Shown here piece after piece: positions 4,481 to 63,158 of a stretch of 64,000 nt of DNA. Position numbers and translations under genes: made by a program. The notes below the pieces were generated by a model. The model had not been told where the DNA came from, searched no databases, and saw nothing but the letters and a program-made list of their open reading frames with translations. The DNA is from Octopus vulgaris. Taxonomy: Eukaryota. Each line of letters begins with the position of its first letter. Position 1 is the first letter of the stretch. Location of the stretch: positions 23,312,001 through 23,376,000 of the forward strand of contig OX597836.1 in NCBI GenBank assembly GCA_951406725.2, read 5' to 3'.

Positions 4481-4650
4481 GACCTGTTGACAAAATTCCG
4501 TGCTGCACGGAATTTTCTCAGTCAACAGGTCGCGGTCTCAAAGCGACGAAAATATTTTGGCAGATTAAATTTAAATGTTGAAGTGAATCTGAAGGTTTTT
4601 GTGTGTTTCTTAAATGGCTTATAAACACTTTCCACGCTGCAATTGTAGTT
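4481..4650 (+). mobile_element. Palindrome-headed short element with a degenerate hammerhead-like fold (putative PLE terminal remnant)
   Basis: Inverted repeat 4481-4503 / 4505-4531 with a 4-nt bulge, followed by GTCGC-loop-GCGAC-GAAA and palindromic AATATT (4529-4556). Confidence 0.4.
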
Positions 4651-4839
4651 ATAGTTATAGAGTTACGTAAGAATAATTGAAACAGAGCTAGTGATTGAAT
4701 ATTTGGTTGTGATTGAAAAGATATTGTCTTCCATCACACACACACACACACACACACACACACACACACACACACACACACACACACACACACATTATAA
4801 ATATGTGTGTGGGACCATTTGTGTATATCTGTATATTCT

Positions 4840-5537
4840 TTTATTCTTTTACTCTTTTACTTGCCTGGGTCATTTGACTGCGACCATGCTGGAGCACCGA
4901 CTTTGGTCAAACAAATCGACCCCAGGATTCTAAGCCTAGTACTTATTCCATCGGTCTCTTTTGCCGAACCGCTAAATTACGGGGACGTAAACACACCAAC
5001 ATCGGTTGTCAAGCGATGGTGACAAGACTAACACAGACACACAAATACATACATGCATACATACACACATGCATGCATACATACATACATACATACATAC
5101 ATACATACTTATATACATATATGACGGGCTTCTTTCAGTTTCCTATTTCTTTGCTACCCACAAGGGGCTAAACACAGAGAGGACAAACAAGGACAGACAA
5201 ACGGATTAAATCGATTATATCGACCCCAGTGCATAACTGGTACTAATTTAATCGACCCCGAAAGGATGAAAGGCAAAGTCAACCTCGGCGGAATTTGAAC
5301 TCAGAACGTAGCGGCAGACGAAATACCGGTAAGCATTTCGCCCGGCGCGCTAACGTTTCTGCCAGCTCGCCGCCTTATTTCAGCTTCTTTCAGTTTCCAT
5401 CTACCAAATCCACTCACAAGGCTTTGGTTGGCCTGCGGCTATTGTAGAAGACACGCCCAAGGTGTCACGCGGTTGGACTGAACCCGGAACCATGTGGTTG
5501 GGACGTAGGCTTCTTACCACACAGTCACTCATGCTCC
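4840..5537 (-). mobile_element. tRNA-derived SINE family A (GGCGCAGGAGTGGCTGTGTGG head), interrupted by a family B SINE
   Basis: Reverse complement aligns by eye with the family A copy at 6418-6870: same head, internal microsatellite and (GTAAAAGA)n tail. Confidence 0.9.
5144..5374 (-). mobile_element. tRNA-derived SINE family B (GGCGGCGAGCTGGCAGAA head) nested in SINE A
   Basis: Matches copies at 31729 and 51029. 16-bp TSD GCTTCTTTCAGTTTCC at 5128-5143 and 5383-5398. Confidence 0.92.
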
Positions 5538-5696
5538 TATATGTGAATGCTTTATATCAACATATCTTTATATGTATTTGTTCATATATGTATATATATA
5601 TATATATATATATATATATATATATATATATATATATATATATATTGTGTGTGTGTGTGTGTGTGTGTGTGTGTGTGTGCGTGTGTGTAGTATGTA

Positions 5697-5998
5697 TACT
5701 CTTTTACTCTTTTACTTGTTTCAGCCATTTGGCTGCGATCATGCTGGAGCATCGCCTTTAGTCGAAGAAATCGACTCCAGGACTTATTCTTTGTAAGCCT
5801 AGTACTTATTCTATCGGTCTCTTAACATAAACACACCAGCATTGGTTGTCAAGCGATGGTGAAGGGACAAACACAGACACACAAGTACGTACAGTTTCCG
5901 TCTACCAAGGCTATAGTAGAAGACATCTGCCCAAGATGTCACGCAGTAGGACTGAACCTAGAACCATGTGGTTGGGAAGCAAGCTTCTTACCAACCAC
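5697..5998 (-). mobile_element. SINE family A, internally deleted
   Basis: Homologous to 6418-6870 with several internal deletions. Confidence 0.85.
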
Positions 5999-6417
5999 GC
6001 ACACACACACAAACACACACACACACACACGCGCGCACACACACGCGCACACACACACACACATATATATATATATATATATATATATATATATATATAT
6101 ATATATATGGGTATGAATATTTATATATGGTTATACATACATATAGATATACACATAAGCATATATTTAGTAGAAGTACTCATAGCTCGGCTGGATGTGC
6201 ACAAAGAAGCGTAGATATTTTATCGATTCAGAAGCGAGGAAATGCAAAGTTGACCTCGGCGGGATTTGAACTCAGAACATACAGAGTCAGAAGAAATGTC
6301 AGGAAGCATTTGTCCGACGCGCTAACGATTCGGTCAGCTCCCTGTGTTTTGGCCTTCATATTAAAATGTCAAACTGTCAAACTGTAACTGGAAATTCTAA
6401 ACGTAATAACTACATTA

Positions 6418-59412: not shown

Positions 59413-59707
59413 ATATATTTGTTGCCGTTGTTGTTGTTGTTGTTTAACCCTGAGAACGTTGAAAAGTGAAACCGACTCCGGGTGGTTTGAACGTGGCATG
59501 TAGAGGAGAGAGAATTTGCTGAGTACCTTTCATTTGACACTGAATAGAGTTGGAGACTTCACTCAACGAAAGCAATTTGTTGTCGTTGCTGTGGTTAATA
59601 TTATCTAGGTTCTTGCTGTTTCTGTTGTTTAAATCAAGCTCAGTTCTAACCGAACAGGTATAATAAAAGGCGTTCCAGTTGCGACCATTCCGTCTTTTTT
59701 AAGCCTT
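59413..59707. repeat. ~295-bp direct repeat, copy 2
   Basis: See 57718-58012. Confidence 0.9.
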
Positions 59708-62168
59708 CTGCTTGGGTTAGGAACCATAATCAGCTACTTCAGTCAAAAATGTCTTTTCTTAATGACTCAAACGATGATATAAATCTAGACAGGTGTGTTC
59801 ACATTACTGTTCAAGTTTAACAACTGCTTTTAAGGAATTCTCTATCAATATCAGCCGGACAGAGTATGACAACTTTCTTGTACATATCCATGCTTATACC
59901 AGAAGGTAACGAGCTGACGTCTTTACAGAAGGAATGAGTCATAGTTCTGATTAAAAATGGAATAATTAACACATTTCTTACATAGCACAATGATTTAAAT
60001 AGTTGGCGTAATTTCTTAGTTACCCTGCTTACTTCTGACCTACATAAAAGTCATTCGGTATTCTCCCCCCCACCTCTCTCTGCTTGTGAAAATTATGTCC
60101 GGTTTCTTCTGGAACTTGGTGATCGCTGAATGGGATAAAGCTATAGATTCGTGTTATCATCTTTTAAAGCTATCCGCTGGGGTCAACTCTGCCTTTTACT
60201 TTTTCAAACTTGATAAAATAAAGTACCAGCCAATACTAGGCAGTACATTATCGACTATACCCGTCTACCCTAACTTTGCAGGCCTTGTACCAAAATCTGA
60301 AACAACTAACAATTATTATTATTATTATTATTATTATTATTATTATTATTATTATTATTATTTTTATTGAGTGAGAGAGCAGTGCATGCCATCAAAGTGA
60401 CACGGGTAAAATATACGAAGTCCATAAGGGTACACCAGGCACATGCATCACAATCATATGTGTGCGACATGGTGATAAACAGTGCATGACCTTGCATGTG
60501 GGGGCCTGGTTAGAATTTTCTTCAGGTCAAGAAGCCCATCTCGCCCATAAGGTCCCTGAATAAGGTTTGGTTAAAGATGATGAAAAAACACCCATATTTC
60601 CAGAGATGAATTATCTAAACCCCAAAGAATTCCTCTCAACAAATAGCTATGATGCTACCCCACTACTTCTCGTAATCAGAGATGCACATATCGTCAGCCA
60701 GCAAGAGACATGCTCAACTGGTTAAGGTCAATTTCATTCATTTTCTTTTACTCTGGTTTACCTCTTCTCTTGCACGATATTGGCCAAGGAATGGGTTTTC
60801 TCTGTATTTTTGTTTTCTTAAATATATCTTGAAAATCCATTTTGATTTTGTCCTTTGTTGTTTTTTTTTCTTAACCTTTACAGTCGTATTCCTCATTATC
60901 TAATATGTTTTATCTTTCTATTTTATTATTTCCTTATATACAGAGGAAAATTTTAAATCGTTCTTTGACAATTCTCTTTTACACTTATTAGCTTCCTTTC
61001 GCTTTATTCTAAGGTTTTTTCCAAGTCCCACTGGTATTACTTTGTAATAGTGTTCTATTTGTACCAGACCTCATCATCTTTATGTGCAGGATAGATATAT
61101 TCCATTTACATGAACTTCGAGAAGATTCGGAACACTCTTAGTAGTTTTTTTTGTTGTTGTCAACACCTTTTAATTAATATAGCTTCGAGTTCATGTTTGA
61201 ACTGTAGTTTTTAAGAGGGATGGCTAATGTATATATATCAATTATGTAATTACTAGTACTGAATTCAGTTTTTTAATATTAATCTGACACTTTTGTTATA
61301 TTATTCTGTCTCGTTTCGTTTTTTGTAAAAAAATATTTTATCAGTTTTGTCAACTCCTAAATATTTGTGTTGATTATTCTAATTTAATTCTCTGATTTCG
61401 GTGTAAAATATTCTTAGTTCTCTTCTTATAATTTATTGCTGTGACACACTTGTCAAATACCAGGCCTATTCTTATGTCTTTGGCGAATTTATAGGAGGGG
61501 AAAAATCAACCTTCTCAAGAACTACTCATTTCCCTATGACGTTCCATAAAACTCCGGTACTCCTGGACTGGTCCACTTCAAGAAAGGTCTCGAGATAAAA
61601 CATTAATAAAGAGTTAAGCAAGGGTGTATTTGCCGCAAATTTCAGGAAGATGCTAATATCGACAGGAAGTGTAGCCTCTCTTGGAATGGTGACCGTTACA
61701 TCACGTTATATTTGAAGGTTATATTTTAGCGATCCAAAAATAATACAAAAAAAAAAAAAACCGGAGACAGCTGACAACTGGCCAGAAAGTAGTTCATGGT
61801 TGACGGGTTGAATTACTGGGTCATTGTCTCATTAAACAGACGATTGTCGACTTCCGTTCTATGGATAGCTTTGACCAATAACGACAACAACAACAAGAAT
61901 AGTAATGACATGAGCTATATCATCATCATCGTCATAATTATCATCATAAACATCGTGTCTATCATGAATAACATCATCATCATCATCATCATTAGACTGA
62001 AAAGAGAAAATCATCTCAAACAAAATAACAACAATAATAGTGATGGTGAAAATTACTACTCGCTTTTGTGATTGTTCCATTCCCCGCCCTCTCTCTTTCT
62101 CTCTCTCTCTCTCTCTCTCACTCTCTCTCTCTCTCTCTCTCTCTCTCTCACATATATATATATATATA

Positions 62169-62617
62169 CTAGCAGTAATACCCGTCGTTGATCGGGTAAT
62201 TACTTTTACTGTCTCTCGGGCCGAGAAGCTAGAAAGATGGGTATATATCATAGAGAAGAATAGCTTTGCGGAATCCATTTGACTGCGATGGCATTGAAAA
62301 GGCTGCAGGTCAAGTGGAACATCACTGTTCATATAGAAAAAGCATTGCACGTCGTGCGTTTGTTTGGTGTTCGTTTTGTGACGTTCTTTTTTTCAGTAGA
62401 CATTTTTGTATATCAGGAATATCAGCAAATATTAGTGAAATGAAATTACAAATTCTGTGTCCTGTCAATGTTAATGCTGAAATTCCGACGCTATATTACA
62501 GGAATGGAACGCAAGGCAACAGTAAGTAATAGCCCAATGAAATTACAAACGTTGTGTCCTGTCAGTCAGATTTAGGTTTACTCGTCCTGTAAGTGTGTAT
62601 TATATAAGAGAAAAAGA
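62169..62617 (-). mobile_element. Non-autonomous Helitron
   Basis: Minus strand starts A|TCTTTTTCTCTTATATAAT (62617) and ends CTAG|T (62169). Subterminal hairpin TACCCG/CGGGTA at 62179-62198. No TSD. Internal repeat AATGAAATTACAAA..TGTGTCCTGTCA occurs twice. Confidence 0.7.
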
Positions 62618-62969
62618 TGTAATAATTGAAGTAGAAATAAGATGGATTTCATATACGAACTTCTGTTTGTTCTTCAAGTTGCAATCCAGCAACTTTTAGA
62701 GTTTGGCCCTGACTTTTATTAATGCTCACAGCAGAAGAAAATGACTTAAATTTGAATGGGACATTAGATGGTATAACTGGCATGCAAGGAACGAAGACGG
62801 TGTCACGTTTACCATAACCAGTGAGAAAATTTGCCTCAATGCAGTCGTCATAGGTTTGTGCACAATTAGTGTTGCATCCCTTGAACCATTTACTTTCACT
62901 TTATGGGACAACCAACACACAAACGGACAGAATATCTGTTTTATATATGTATATATATATATATATATA

Positions 62970-63158
62970 CGCCATGATAGATCGTTAGCCACTACACACA
63001 TTTTTCTCTCTCCTTGTTTTTTCTGTGTCCCTTTCTGTAGAAGAGCGTAGGCTCGAAACGTAAAATACTTTTTCTATTCCTGAGCGTTATACTAATACAT
63101 CTGTTTGTTTTGTACACCACCTGTCTTCGCTTTTTTGTTTTTTTCGTAAACACTCCCT
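62970..63158 (+). mobile_element. Family H1 HHR-bearing element (HHR 63031-63066, CUGUAGA core)
   Basis: TTT | CTGTAGA | A | GAGC-GTAG-GCTC | GAAA | CGTA | AAA. (TA)n on both sides. Confidence 0.8.

Follow-up and report, generated by a model that had tools for sequence, protein, structure and literature searches.

The hammerhead-like motifs scattered over a 64,000-nt stretch of the Octopus vulgaris genome (contig OX597836.1, positions 23,312,001 to 23,376,000; hereafter the window) are likely accounted for by two sources, namely type I hammerheads at the ends of Penelope-like elements (PLEs) and a rearranged hammerhead at 18545-18667 whose architecture is shared with the Naiad group of PLEs. 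Families A, B, D, E and G, which together supply eight of the eleven motifs, can be assigned with high confidence to the 3′ ends of autonomous Neptune- or Hydra-type PLEs. This type I part is largely known, and the permuted topology at 18545-18667 is the novel part; the predicted fold is very likely real and would probably self-cleave as a monomer.

All eleven coordinates listed in an earlier note on this DNA hold hammerhead-related sequence, each lying within a genome-wide repeat family. Eight families (A–H) were distinguished, family A being represented by four window copies and B, C, D, E, F, G and H by one motif each; first-look searches of the genome returned at least 689 (A), 1440 (B), 4693 (C), 346 (D), 275 (E), 17 (F), 915 (G) and 1469 (H) candidates. 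Intact type I folds were found at 11621 (B), at 12161, 39020 and 45069 (A), at 34337 (D) and at 34670 (E), the copies of F, G and H are damaged, and the A copy at 63031 carries a single mismatch in stem I. The motif at 18591, which belongs to family C and lies in a unit lacking open reading frames (ORFs), is laid out as follows.

18392..18790, + strand: family C1, an ORF-less unit of ~0.8-0.9 kb of which this copy has lost the 5′ part; (TA)n follows
18545..18667, + strand: predicted permuted split-core hammerhead, with the parts below
18545-50, + strand: P0, 5′ strand
18551-84, + strand: hairpin Pa
18585-89, + strand: stem II, 5′ strand, from G10.1
18591-96 with 18643-47, + strand: bridging helix
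18604-09, + strand: stem III, 3′ strand, and UH; predicted cut after 18609
18610-15, + strand: stem I, 3′ strand
18621-25, + strand: stem II, 3′ strand
18626-33, + strand: GAAA and stem III, 5′ strand
18649-54, + strand: stem I, 5′ strand (one mismatch in this copy)
18655-61, + strand: CUGAUGA
18662-67, + strand: P0, 3′ strand

Readings of 18591 as a type I or type II hammerhead failed. All hammerhead core residues are present at 18545-18667, and between 18604 and 18661 their blocks are reversed (cut site, GAAA, CUGAUGA) relative to every classical type; the earlier note had correctly taken the motif as hammerhead-related while leaving its permuted topology unrecognised. For the strand preceding GAAA, the best partner is found upstream of the cut-site block and opens with the G expected at position 10.1; because this stem II partner lies far upstream, A9 and G10.1 are not adjacent. 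The bases following CUGAUGA pair with the P0 strand further upstream, and a hairpin stands between P0 and G10.1. From 5′ to 3′ the order in family C is therefore P0 5′, hairpin, stem II 5′, bridging helix, stem III 3′/cut site/stem I 3′, stem II 3′/GAAA/stem III 5′, bridging helix, stem I 5′/CUGANGA and P0 3′. Six hammerhead permutations have been defined on the assumption that block C is uninterruptible (PMC10085705). The split form may be regarded as the ring of types CSG and SGC broken at the A9/G10.1 junction to admit two further helices.

The fold was examined in an alignment of 30 sequences, ten each from subfamilies C1, C2 and C3, chosen from 62 extracted copies. Of the cells in this alignment, 92.7% were paired, compared with 37-44% when the partners were slid; two-sided changes occurred in 13 of the 29 pairs and fell in P0, Pa, stem II, the bridging helix, stem III and stem I. 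Minimum free energy (MFE) folding alone, applied to C2 and C3, recovered P0, Pa, the bridging helix and stem III. A descriptor of the split form gave four matches in 400 kb of unselected DNA, one in the window and 91 in selected loci totalling 1.44 Mb, and both reversed controls were free of matches; from the four matches per 400 kb, the genome would hold roughly 8,000-70,000 intact split-form copies. Furthermore, 12 families that are 43-84% identical keep the split fold with different stem letters, and 30 of their 36 stems extend past the descriptor minimum (~13.5 expected).

Several properties of the units that carry this fold bear on how they spread. C2 is young, its best matches being 96-99% identical (2532 candidates), and its unit, measured at four tandem loci, is 802-842 nt long with no ORF; 5′ ends fall between -747 and 0, and 8 of 30 copies extend into a previous unit. 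The units of C1-C3 close head to tail, and no copy with two complete ribozymes one unit apart was seen. These data support family C as a truly ORF-less unit, in contrast to most of the other motifs. At the unit starts of C1-C3 (L337, L346, L384, L074), the AT-rich end of the previous unit is followed by a short conserved stretch and then by a GTAAG splice-donor-like site; an ATG occurs there in C2 and in one C3 copy, and the arrangement resembles the 5′ intron of Penelope.

The same architecture was recognised at the ends of published Naiad elements. Naiads were reported without a canonical hammerhead, and File S1 of the source carries the flags 'HHR_core' and 'HHR_half_core' (PMC8557442). We inspected visually those passages in its File S5 with an exact CUGANGA (for the four spellings, places 26-53 of 62, 4-21 of 23, 4-21 of 25 and 4-21 of 43), naming the Naiads from adjacent headers where visible and otherwise from their position in the file. 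Seventeen of the 54 consensus ends fitted a rearranged hammerhead, ten of them in the split form, six as type CSG and one as SGC-like. The split forms comprise Beroe (with a stem I of only two pairs), one at the Clytia position, three from Acropora (of which one has two stems with a single mismatch each), two each from file part 12 and from Octopus, and one arthropod in part 19; the six clean CSG forms, complete with a bridging helix, stand at nematode positions and the SGC-like one at a spider position. A 20-mer of the published Octopus Naiad has 212 exact matches in this genome, and the Octopus Naiad 3′ end, with its split fold, sits behind a reverse transcriptase (RT) ORF in locus L409. Like family C, Naiads have a (TA)n bias and carry the same ribozyme architecture in their 3′ untranslated region (UTR), whereas C lacks an ORF and any sequence link to the Naiad ORF. 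A split hammerhead in Naiads would explain why these elements were reported to have none. On these structural fits, we lean slightly towards the view that Naiads of ctenophores, cnidarians, nematodes, arthropods and cephalopods carry active non-circular hammerheads, including a seventh topology, and that thousands to tens of thousands of them here drive ORF-less parasites of 0.8-0.9 kb. That Naiad mobilises family C is a little more probable: the ribozyme would cut tandem or read-through C transcripts to unit length, and the ORF-less unit would likely borrow the Naiad RT and endonuclease.

A set of observations counts against an active split-core ribozyme shared by C and Naiad. The alignment spans only three lineages and hence few independent events, and its number of two-sided pairs did not exceed that of shuffled data (456 of 500). 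Any descriptor match is paired by design, and the families had already been seen when the descriptors were written; taken family by family, the bridging helix reaches significance in only 3 of the 12, and P0 and Pa directly adjoin the core in C1-C3 but fit it loosely in other families. Copies that start at the predicted cut are few (1 of 30 for C2; 2 of 20 for Naiad, these two lying 600 bp apart), and a scan of 30 loci each of C1 and C2 found no upstream ORF with an N-terminal GIY-YIG and a C-terminal RT. Finally, 37 of the 54 Naiad consensi gave no clear fit or fell outside the passages inspected, and no fit was found at bivalve positions.

The scarcity of ends at the predicted cut would also be expected if the rearranged fold were real and non-cutting, serving as a hammerhead-derived protein-binding or packaging signal for the Naiad RT. 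In line with this, hammerhead cleavage was dispensable for insertion of an Anolis PLE in vitro (PMC11167929), and among known hammerheads none accommodates more than 1-2 nt separating A9 from stem II (PMC10085705). However, CUGANGA, GAAA, the G10.1-C11.1 pair and the U-H cut triplet are kept in 12 of 12 families despite the turnover of their stems, a conservation that is partly required by the descriptor, and we regard a purely non-cutting signal as unlikely.

Slightly less likely again is that family C is a plain type SGC hammerhead, which would form stem II with the GGG directly after CUGAUGA and use the upstream pairing as an off-switch. This was our first reading of the family, and it was revised because the upstream pairing was seen. 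The blocks do follow one another in the order S, G, C with all core residues present, and a strict SGC descriptor finds family C and two sister subfamilies with compensatory stems and has no match in reversed sequence; for stem II, a 5′ strand no more than 1-2 nt from A9 is possible in C1-C4, where four downstream base pairs or more can form with G10.1-C11.1 (a 4-bp stem that includes G-U pairs, and a further point against the split form), and one published Naiad end, that of the spider, is SGC-like. Against this, the downstream stem is the weaker one in C1-C4 and is absent in 8 of the 12 families, which offer 0-2 downstream pairs and no usable stem II, whereas the upstream stem II has 4-5 pairs, Watson-Crick in the majority of each subfamily, with three two-sided changes; in the MFE fold, moreover, the downstream GGG is occupied by P0.

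Compared with the known SGC and CSG types (PMC10085705), family C shares the reversed cyclic block order, the short linker between stems I and II and the helix that bridges them, and differs in having block C split between A9 and G10.1. SGC is known there from metatranscriptomes only and CSG from metagenomes only, whereas C is a high-copy family of an animal genome that is tied to retroelements. Non-LTR (long terminal repeat) retrozymes (PMC7229834; bioRxiv 10.64898/2026.07.22.740005) are likewise ORF-less, hammerhead-bearing and presumed to be mobilised by PLEs, and C copies too can exceed one unit; retrozymes, however, consist of type I ribozymes in tandem arrays of mostly 200-400 nt units (PMC7229834), while C units measure 0.8-0.9 kb and are dispersed. 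A literature search that covered few subscription papers found no description of a non-circular hammerhead in a Naiad or another retroelement, or of an insertion between A9 and G10.1. If the reading of C and Naiad as carriers of a split hammerhead is true, it would overturn the published statement that Naiads lack hammerheads and make the ribozyme near-universal in animal PLEs; it would also move non-circularly permuted ribozymes from anonymous environmental RNA into animal genomes at high copy number, and would mean that a junction of the hammerhead core considered inviolable can accept a large insertion. CSG, SGC and the split form may be different openings of one ring, and their occurrence within one element clade suggests a possible route to such permutations.

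The remaining ten motifs have the type I order of stems I and II and belong to the following element ends.

4481..4646, + strand: family H end, a short inverted arm (4481-4504) plus a direct arm; minimal type I hammerhead at 4517-4561
11548..11755, + strand: family B end, Neptune-type PLE; minimal type I hammerhead at 11621-11655 with U4C and a palindromic stem III, followed by (TA)n
12106..12285, + strand: family A end, Neptune-type PLE; hammerhead at 12161-12196 with A6U
34279..34467, + strand: family D end, Hydra-type PLE; inverted arm 34279-34336 head to head with a direct arm from the predicted +1 (34337)
34337-34388, + strand: family D hammerhead, canonical core and a real stem III; predicted cut after 34381
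34510..34792, - strand: family E end, Neptune-type PLE; hammerhead at 34630-34670 with A9C, and an inverted arm bearing a 57-nt tail
35497..35787, + strand: family G end, Hydra-type PLE; 3′ half of a hammerhead only (35712-35745), and an inverted arm with tail
38889..39085, - strand: family A end, older subfamily; hammerhead at 38985-39020
40573..40760, + strand: family F end, an old family; decayed minimal type I hammerhead at 40575-40615, G12 lost
44944..45129, - strand: family A end; hammerhead at 45034-45069
62971..63157, + strand: family A end between two (TA)n runs; hammerhead at 63031-63066, one stem I mismatch

Families A, B, D, E, F, G and H all conform to the CUGANGA...GAAA...UH core, with fixed variants in four of them: CUGUNGA (A6U) in 42 of 45 matches of A, U4C in 28 of 30 of B, A9C in E, and in H a G3:C8 swap found in all 30 relatives, 26 of which have GTGAACA and are fully intact, the window copy lacking G5. 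Stem III is palindromic in A, B, F, G and H, a form that would imply cleavage as dimers, near-palindromic in E and a full 4 bp in D; the G motif at 35723 holds only the 3′ half of the hammerhead because the half with CUGAUGA has been truncated away. The inverted terminal duplications reported earlier are evident in D, E, G and H. These ends agree with published minimal type I PLE hammerheads (PMC4209133) in the short helix I, the extra base between positions 9 and 10.1, the palindromic stem III, the prevalence of solitary copies from truncated PLEs, the opposite-strand pairs and the many families per genome, and they differ from them in the A6U, A9C, G3:C8 and U4C cores, which are absent from the parts compared (these give U3-A8), and in the accumulation of their 5′ ends at a predicted start of transcription, which is undescribed there.

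The linkage to PLEs was established from ORFs lying in cis upstream of the hammerheads. A, B and E were classed as Neptune-type on an RT, a CX2-5CxxC linker and a GIY-YIG endonuclease with CCHH, and D and G as Hydra-type on a C-terminal endonuclease without CCHH, a CxCX5C-like linker and the (TA)n bias, the clade assignment depending on the motifs defined in PMC8557442 alone; by these motifs at least two PLE clades appear to be involved in the type I families of the window. In all four long loci of A that were fetched, a C/T-rich UTR of ~1 kb is preceded by an RT (YIDD), a CX4CxxC linker and GIY-YIG. A PLE ORF was found upstream in 11 of 30 loci of E, with RT thumb and endonuclease seen, and a Hydra-type ORF upstream of D across a 2.9-kb UTR in two of the eight regions fetched (L324 and L330; the first linker Cys is replaced in L324). 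The evidence for B is an endonuclease remnant in one of 20 long loci (L493) and that for G a Hydra-type endonuclease fragment in L208. The PLE link proposed earlier stands for A, B, D, E and G, as does its option of solo pseudo-LTRs; the description of the elements as ORF-less fits the window copies and fails for these five families, which run upstream into PLE ORFs. The extension of this picture to the last two families is weakened by the absence of an upstream ORF for F (16 loci) and H (30 loci), and contigs matched to H showed no consistent upstream sequence. Neptune and Hydra PLEs with endonuclease (PMC8557442) likewise have a C-terminal GIY-YIG, a Zn-finger-like linker, a (TA)n bias, an inverted 5′-truncated copy and a one-sided tail, and the extra U on both sides of stem II in the Hydra type (File S2) corresponds to family D; the tails here are at least 55-65 nt long as against 30-40, and the 3′ UTRs are low-complexity sequence of 0.5-2.9 kb. 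In the D parent, the 3′ UTR (L324:4650-7544) consists of 2.9 kb resembling TA/TG microsatellites, which means that the element disperses target-like DNA of its own. Nine of the 20 best long B loci lie within 300 kb of each other (G000:C20:11.26-11.55 Mb), and L109 and L325 hold more near-intact PLE ORFs, one of Hydra type with a U4C hammerhead and another with RT and GIY-YIG.

The RT remnant that the earlier note placed at 48055-48500 and proposed as part of the mobilising PLE also exists.

48037..48319, + strand: decayed Hydra-like PLE RT thumb remnant, single copy (tblastn E 3e-6)

It has no other DNA match (one candidate) and was not recognised by Pfam; a reading on the minus strand was dropped, as tblastn placed it on the plus strand. 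The remnant is a dead single copy and not the mobiliser.

Insertion next to TA repeats was quantified as (TA)≥4 within ~15 nt of the 3′ end, ends being located in 27 of 30 loci for A, 25 of 30 for E, 18 of 30 for C3, 29 of 30 for H and 13 of 20 for Naiad. The repeat was present at 30/30 ends of D, 28/30 of B, 21/27 of A, 18/25 of E, 20/30 of C1, 15/18 of C3, 16/30 of G, 9/29 of H and 8/13 of Naiad, that is, at 31-100% of located ends depending on the family compared with 5.4% of random positions. The suggested targeting of TA repeats is therefore borne out, and adjacency to (TA)n holds at the level of families, the window copies at 4517 and 40575 being exceptions that do not abut it.

The 5′ ends of the short copies were then compared with long copies, against the general background of the initiator consensus and TATA spacing. 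Ends fell within -3 to +11 of an initiator-like TCA in 24 of 30 copies of A and within -1 to +11 of one in 27 of 30 copies of B. In D, long copies carry TATAAA at -29, and 340 matches had the upstream sequence against 830 with a non-templated base before +1. For G, 9 of 30 ends lay within -7 to +1, 5 further upstream and 16 further downstream; for E, 18 of 30 copies were long and the others start downstream of a site 30 nt behind TATAA, five rows that are split alignments being excluded as 5′ ends. Only 1 of 74 unselected flank hits starts at the predicted ribozyme cut; a search for D copies starting at the cut gave no candidates and was uninformative. Two features of the sampling lessen the force of these figures: the A and B samples disfavour copies that start further downstream, though not upstream-extended ones, and in D the search pattern itself ties the count to +1, with palindromic junctions entering it twice (four among the first 30 loci). 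A cap-derived G before the D 5′ end was rejected as evidence since the query had selected for it; in the unselected set it occurs at 12 of 30 loci, often from the inverted arm, a weak hint.

Most short D copies consist of two arms head to head with priming sites ~65 nt apart, and their junctions are perfect or show microhomology or filler; E, G and H show the same two alternative 3′ ends, which lie 55-65 nt apart in the type I families. Where loci of A, B, D, E and G were targeted, the short copies stood alone or were joined head to head, and head-to-tail repeats were only occasional; the short copies of D, E and G lack the upstream promoter sequence and may be by-products rather than independent elements. 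An Anolis PLE studied in vitro used internal priming and extension of both strands (PMC11167929), and PLE transcription from a terminal repeat has been described (PMC2377424; PMC6765202). On this model, transcription would start in the terminal repeat just upstream of the ribozyme, and reverse transcription would start internally, 70-290 nt downstream, and run to the RNA 5′ end; both nicked target strands would be extended and the two complementary DNAs joined by microhomology, so that type I copies would likely be made from uncut RNA and inserted into (TA)n. The scarcity of ends at the ribozyme cut fits such copying of uncut RNA up to its 5′ end, and type I 5′ ends at predicted starts together with head-to-head arms would provide genomic support for two-strand, internally primed PLE insertion.

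From their sequence, the short copies of A, B, D, E and G appear to start at the predicted transcription start and not at the ribozyme cut, and so would not be ribozyme-processed equivalents of short interspersed elements (SINEs), as the earlier note had supposed; no transfer RNA was found in the window, and the 5′ ends lie at TATA/initiator-like RNA polymerase II sites. Its broader model, in which every short element is a non-autonomous, retrozyme-like unit in its own right and the ribozyme releases its RNA, is the least probable of the alternatives and improbable in itself: short copies do outnumber long ones, the ORF-less units of C form partial tandems, no upstream partner was found for H and solo monomers of pseudo-LTR origin occur in vertebrates (bioRxiv 10.64898/2026.07.22.740005), but A, B, D, E and G, which account for most of the motifs, are contiguous with PLE ORFs of their own, their ends lie at predicted starts and not cuts, and ORF-less tandem units like those of retrozymes were not found in them and occur in C only as partial tandems (8 of 30 C2 copies). 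Family H itself (L234-L263) is abundant and its 5′ start is fixed, none of 30 loci extending further upstream and a G standing before the start in 6 of 7 informative junctions; it is possibly the best candidate for a truly non-autonomous type I element.

The density of hammerheads is a property of the genome and not of the window. A strict type I descriptor gave five matches in the 64-kb window compared with none in each of 12 dinucleotide shuffles, and 24 matches in 400 kb sampled elsewhere at 40 fixed 10-kb places (one in the reversed control), some of these being two arms of one insertion; the idea that the motif density here might be special was accordingly abandoned. A rough extrapolation to the 2.8-Gb genome gives on the order of 100,000 type I motifs. 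Rfam listed no hammerhead among the best 150 of 275 matches, where microsatellites dominate, and gave nothing at the gathering score in five loci. The same 400 kb of unselected DNA (L442-L481) holds at least eight more type I hammerhead families and three more split-form families.

Microsatellites, SINE-like repeats and mariner remnants are also present in the window. A twelfth hammerhead-like motif, absent from the earlier note, lies at 49955-50000 on the minus strand and is a decayed type I form with a CUGAUGA core and a 5-bp stem I. At 20216-20405, a head-to-head palindrome without a hammerhead core has a tail 76% like that of family E, and is probably the extreme 3′ end of another PLE family. 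No hammerhead element was detected within a 3.1-kb (TA)n array at 52475-55617. Decayed transposase fragments, which from their motifs we take to be mariner-like, occur at 16890-17760, 26545-26940 and 34829-35482.

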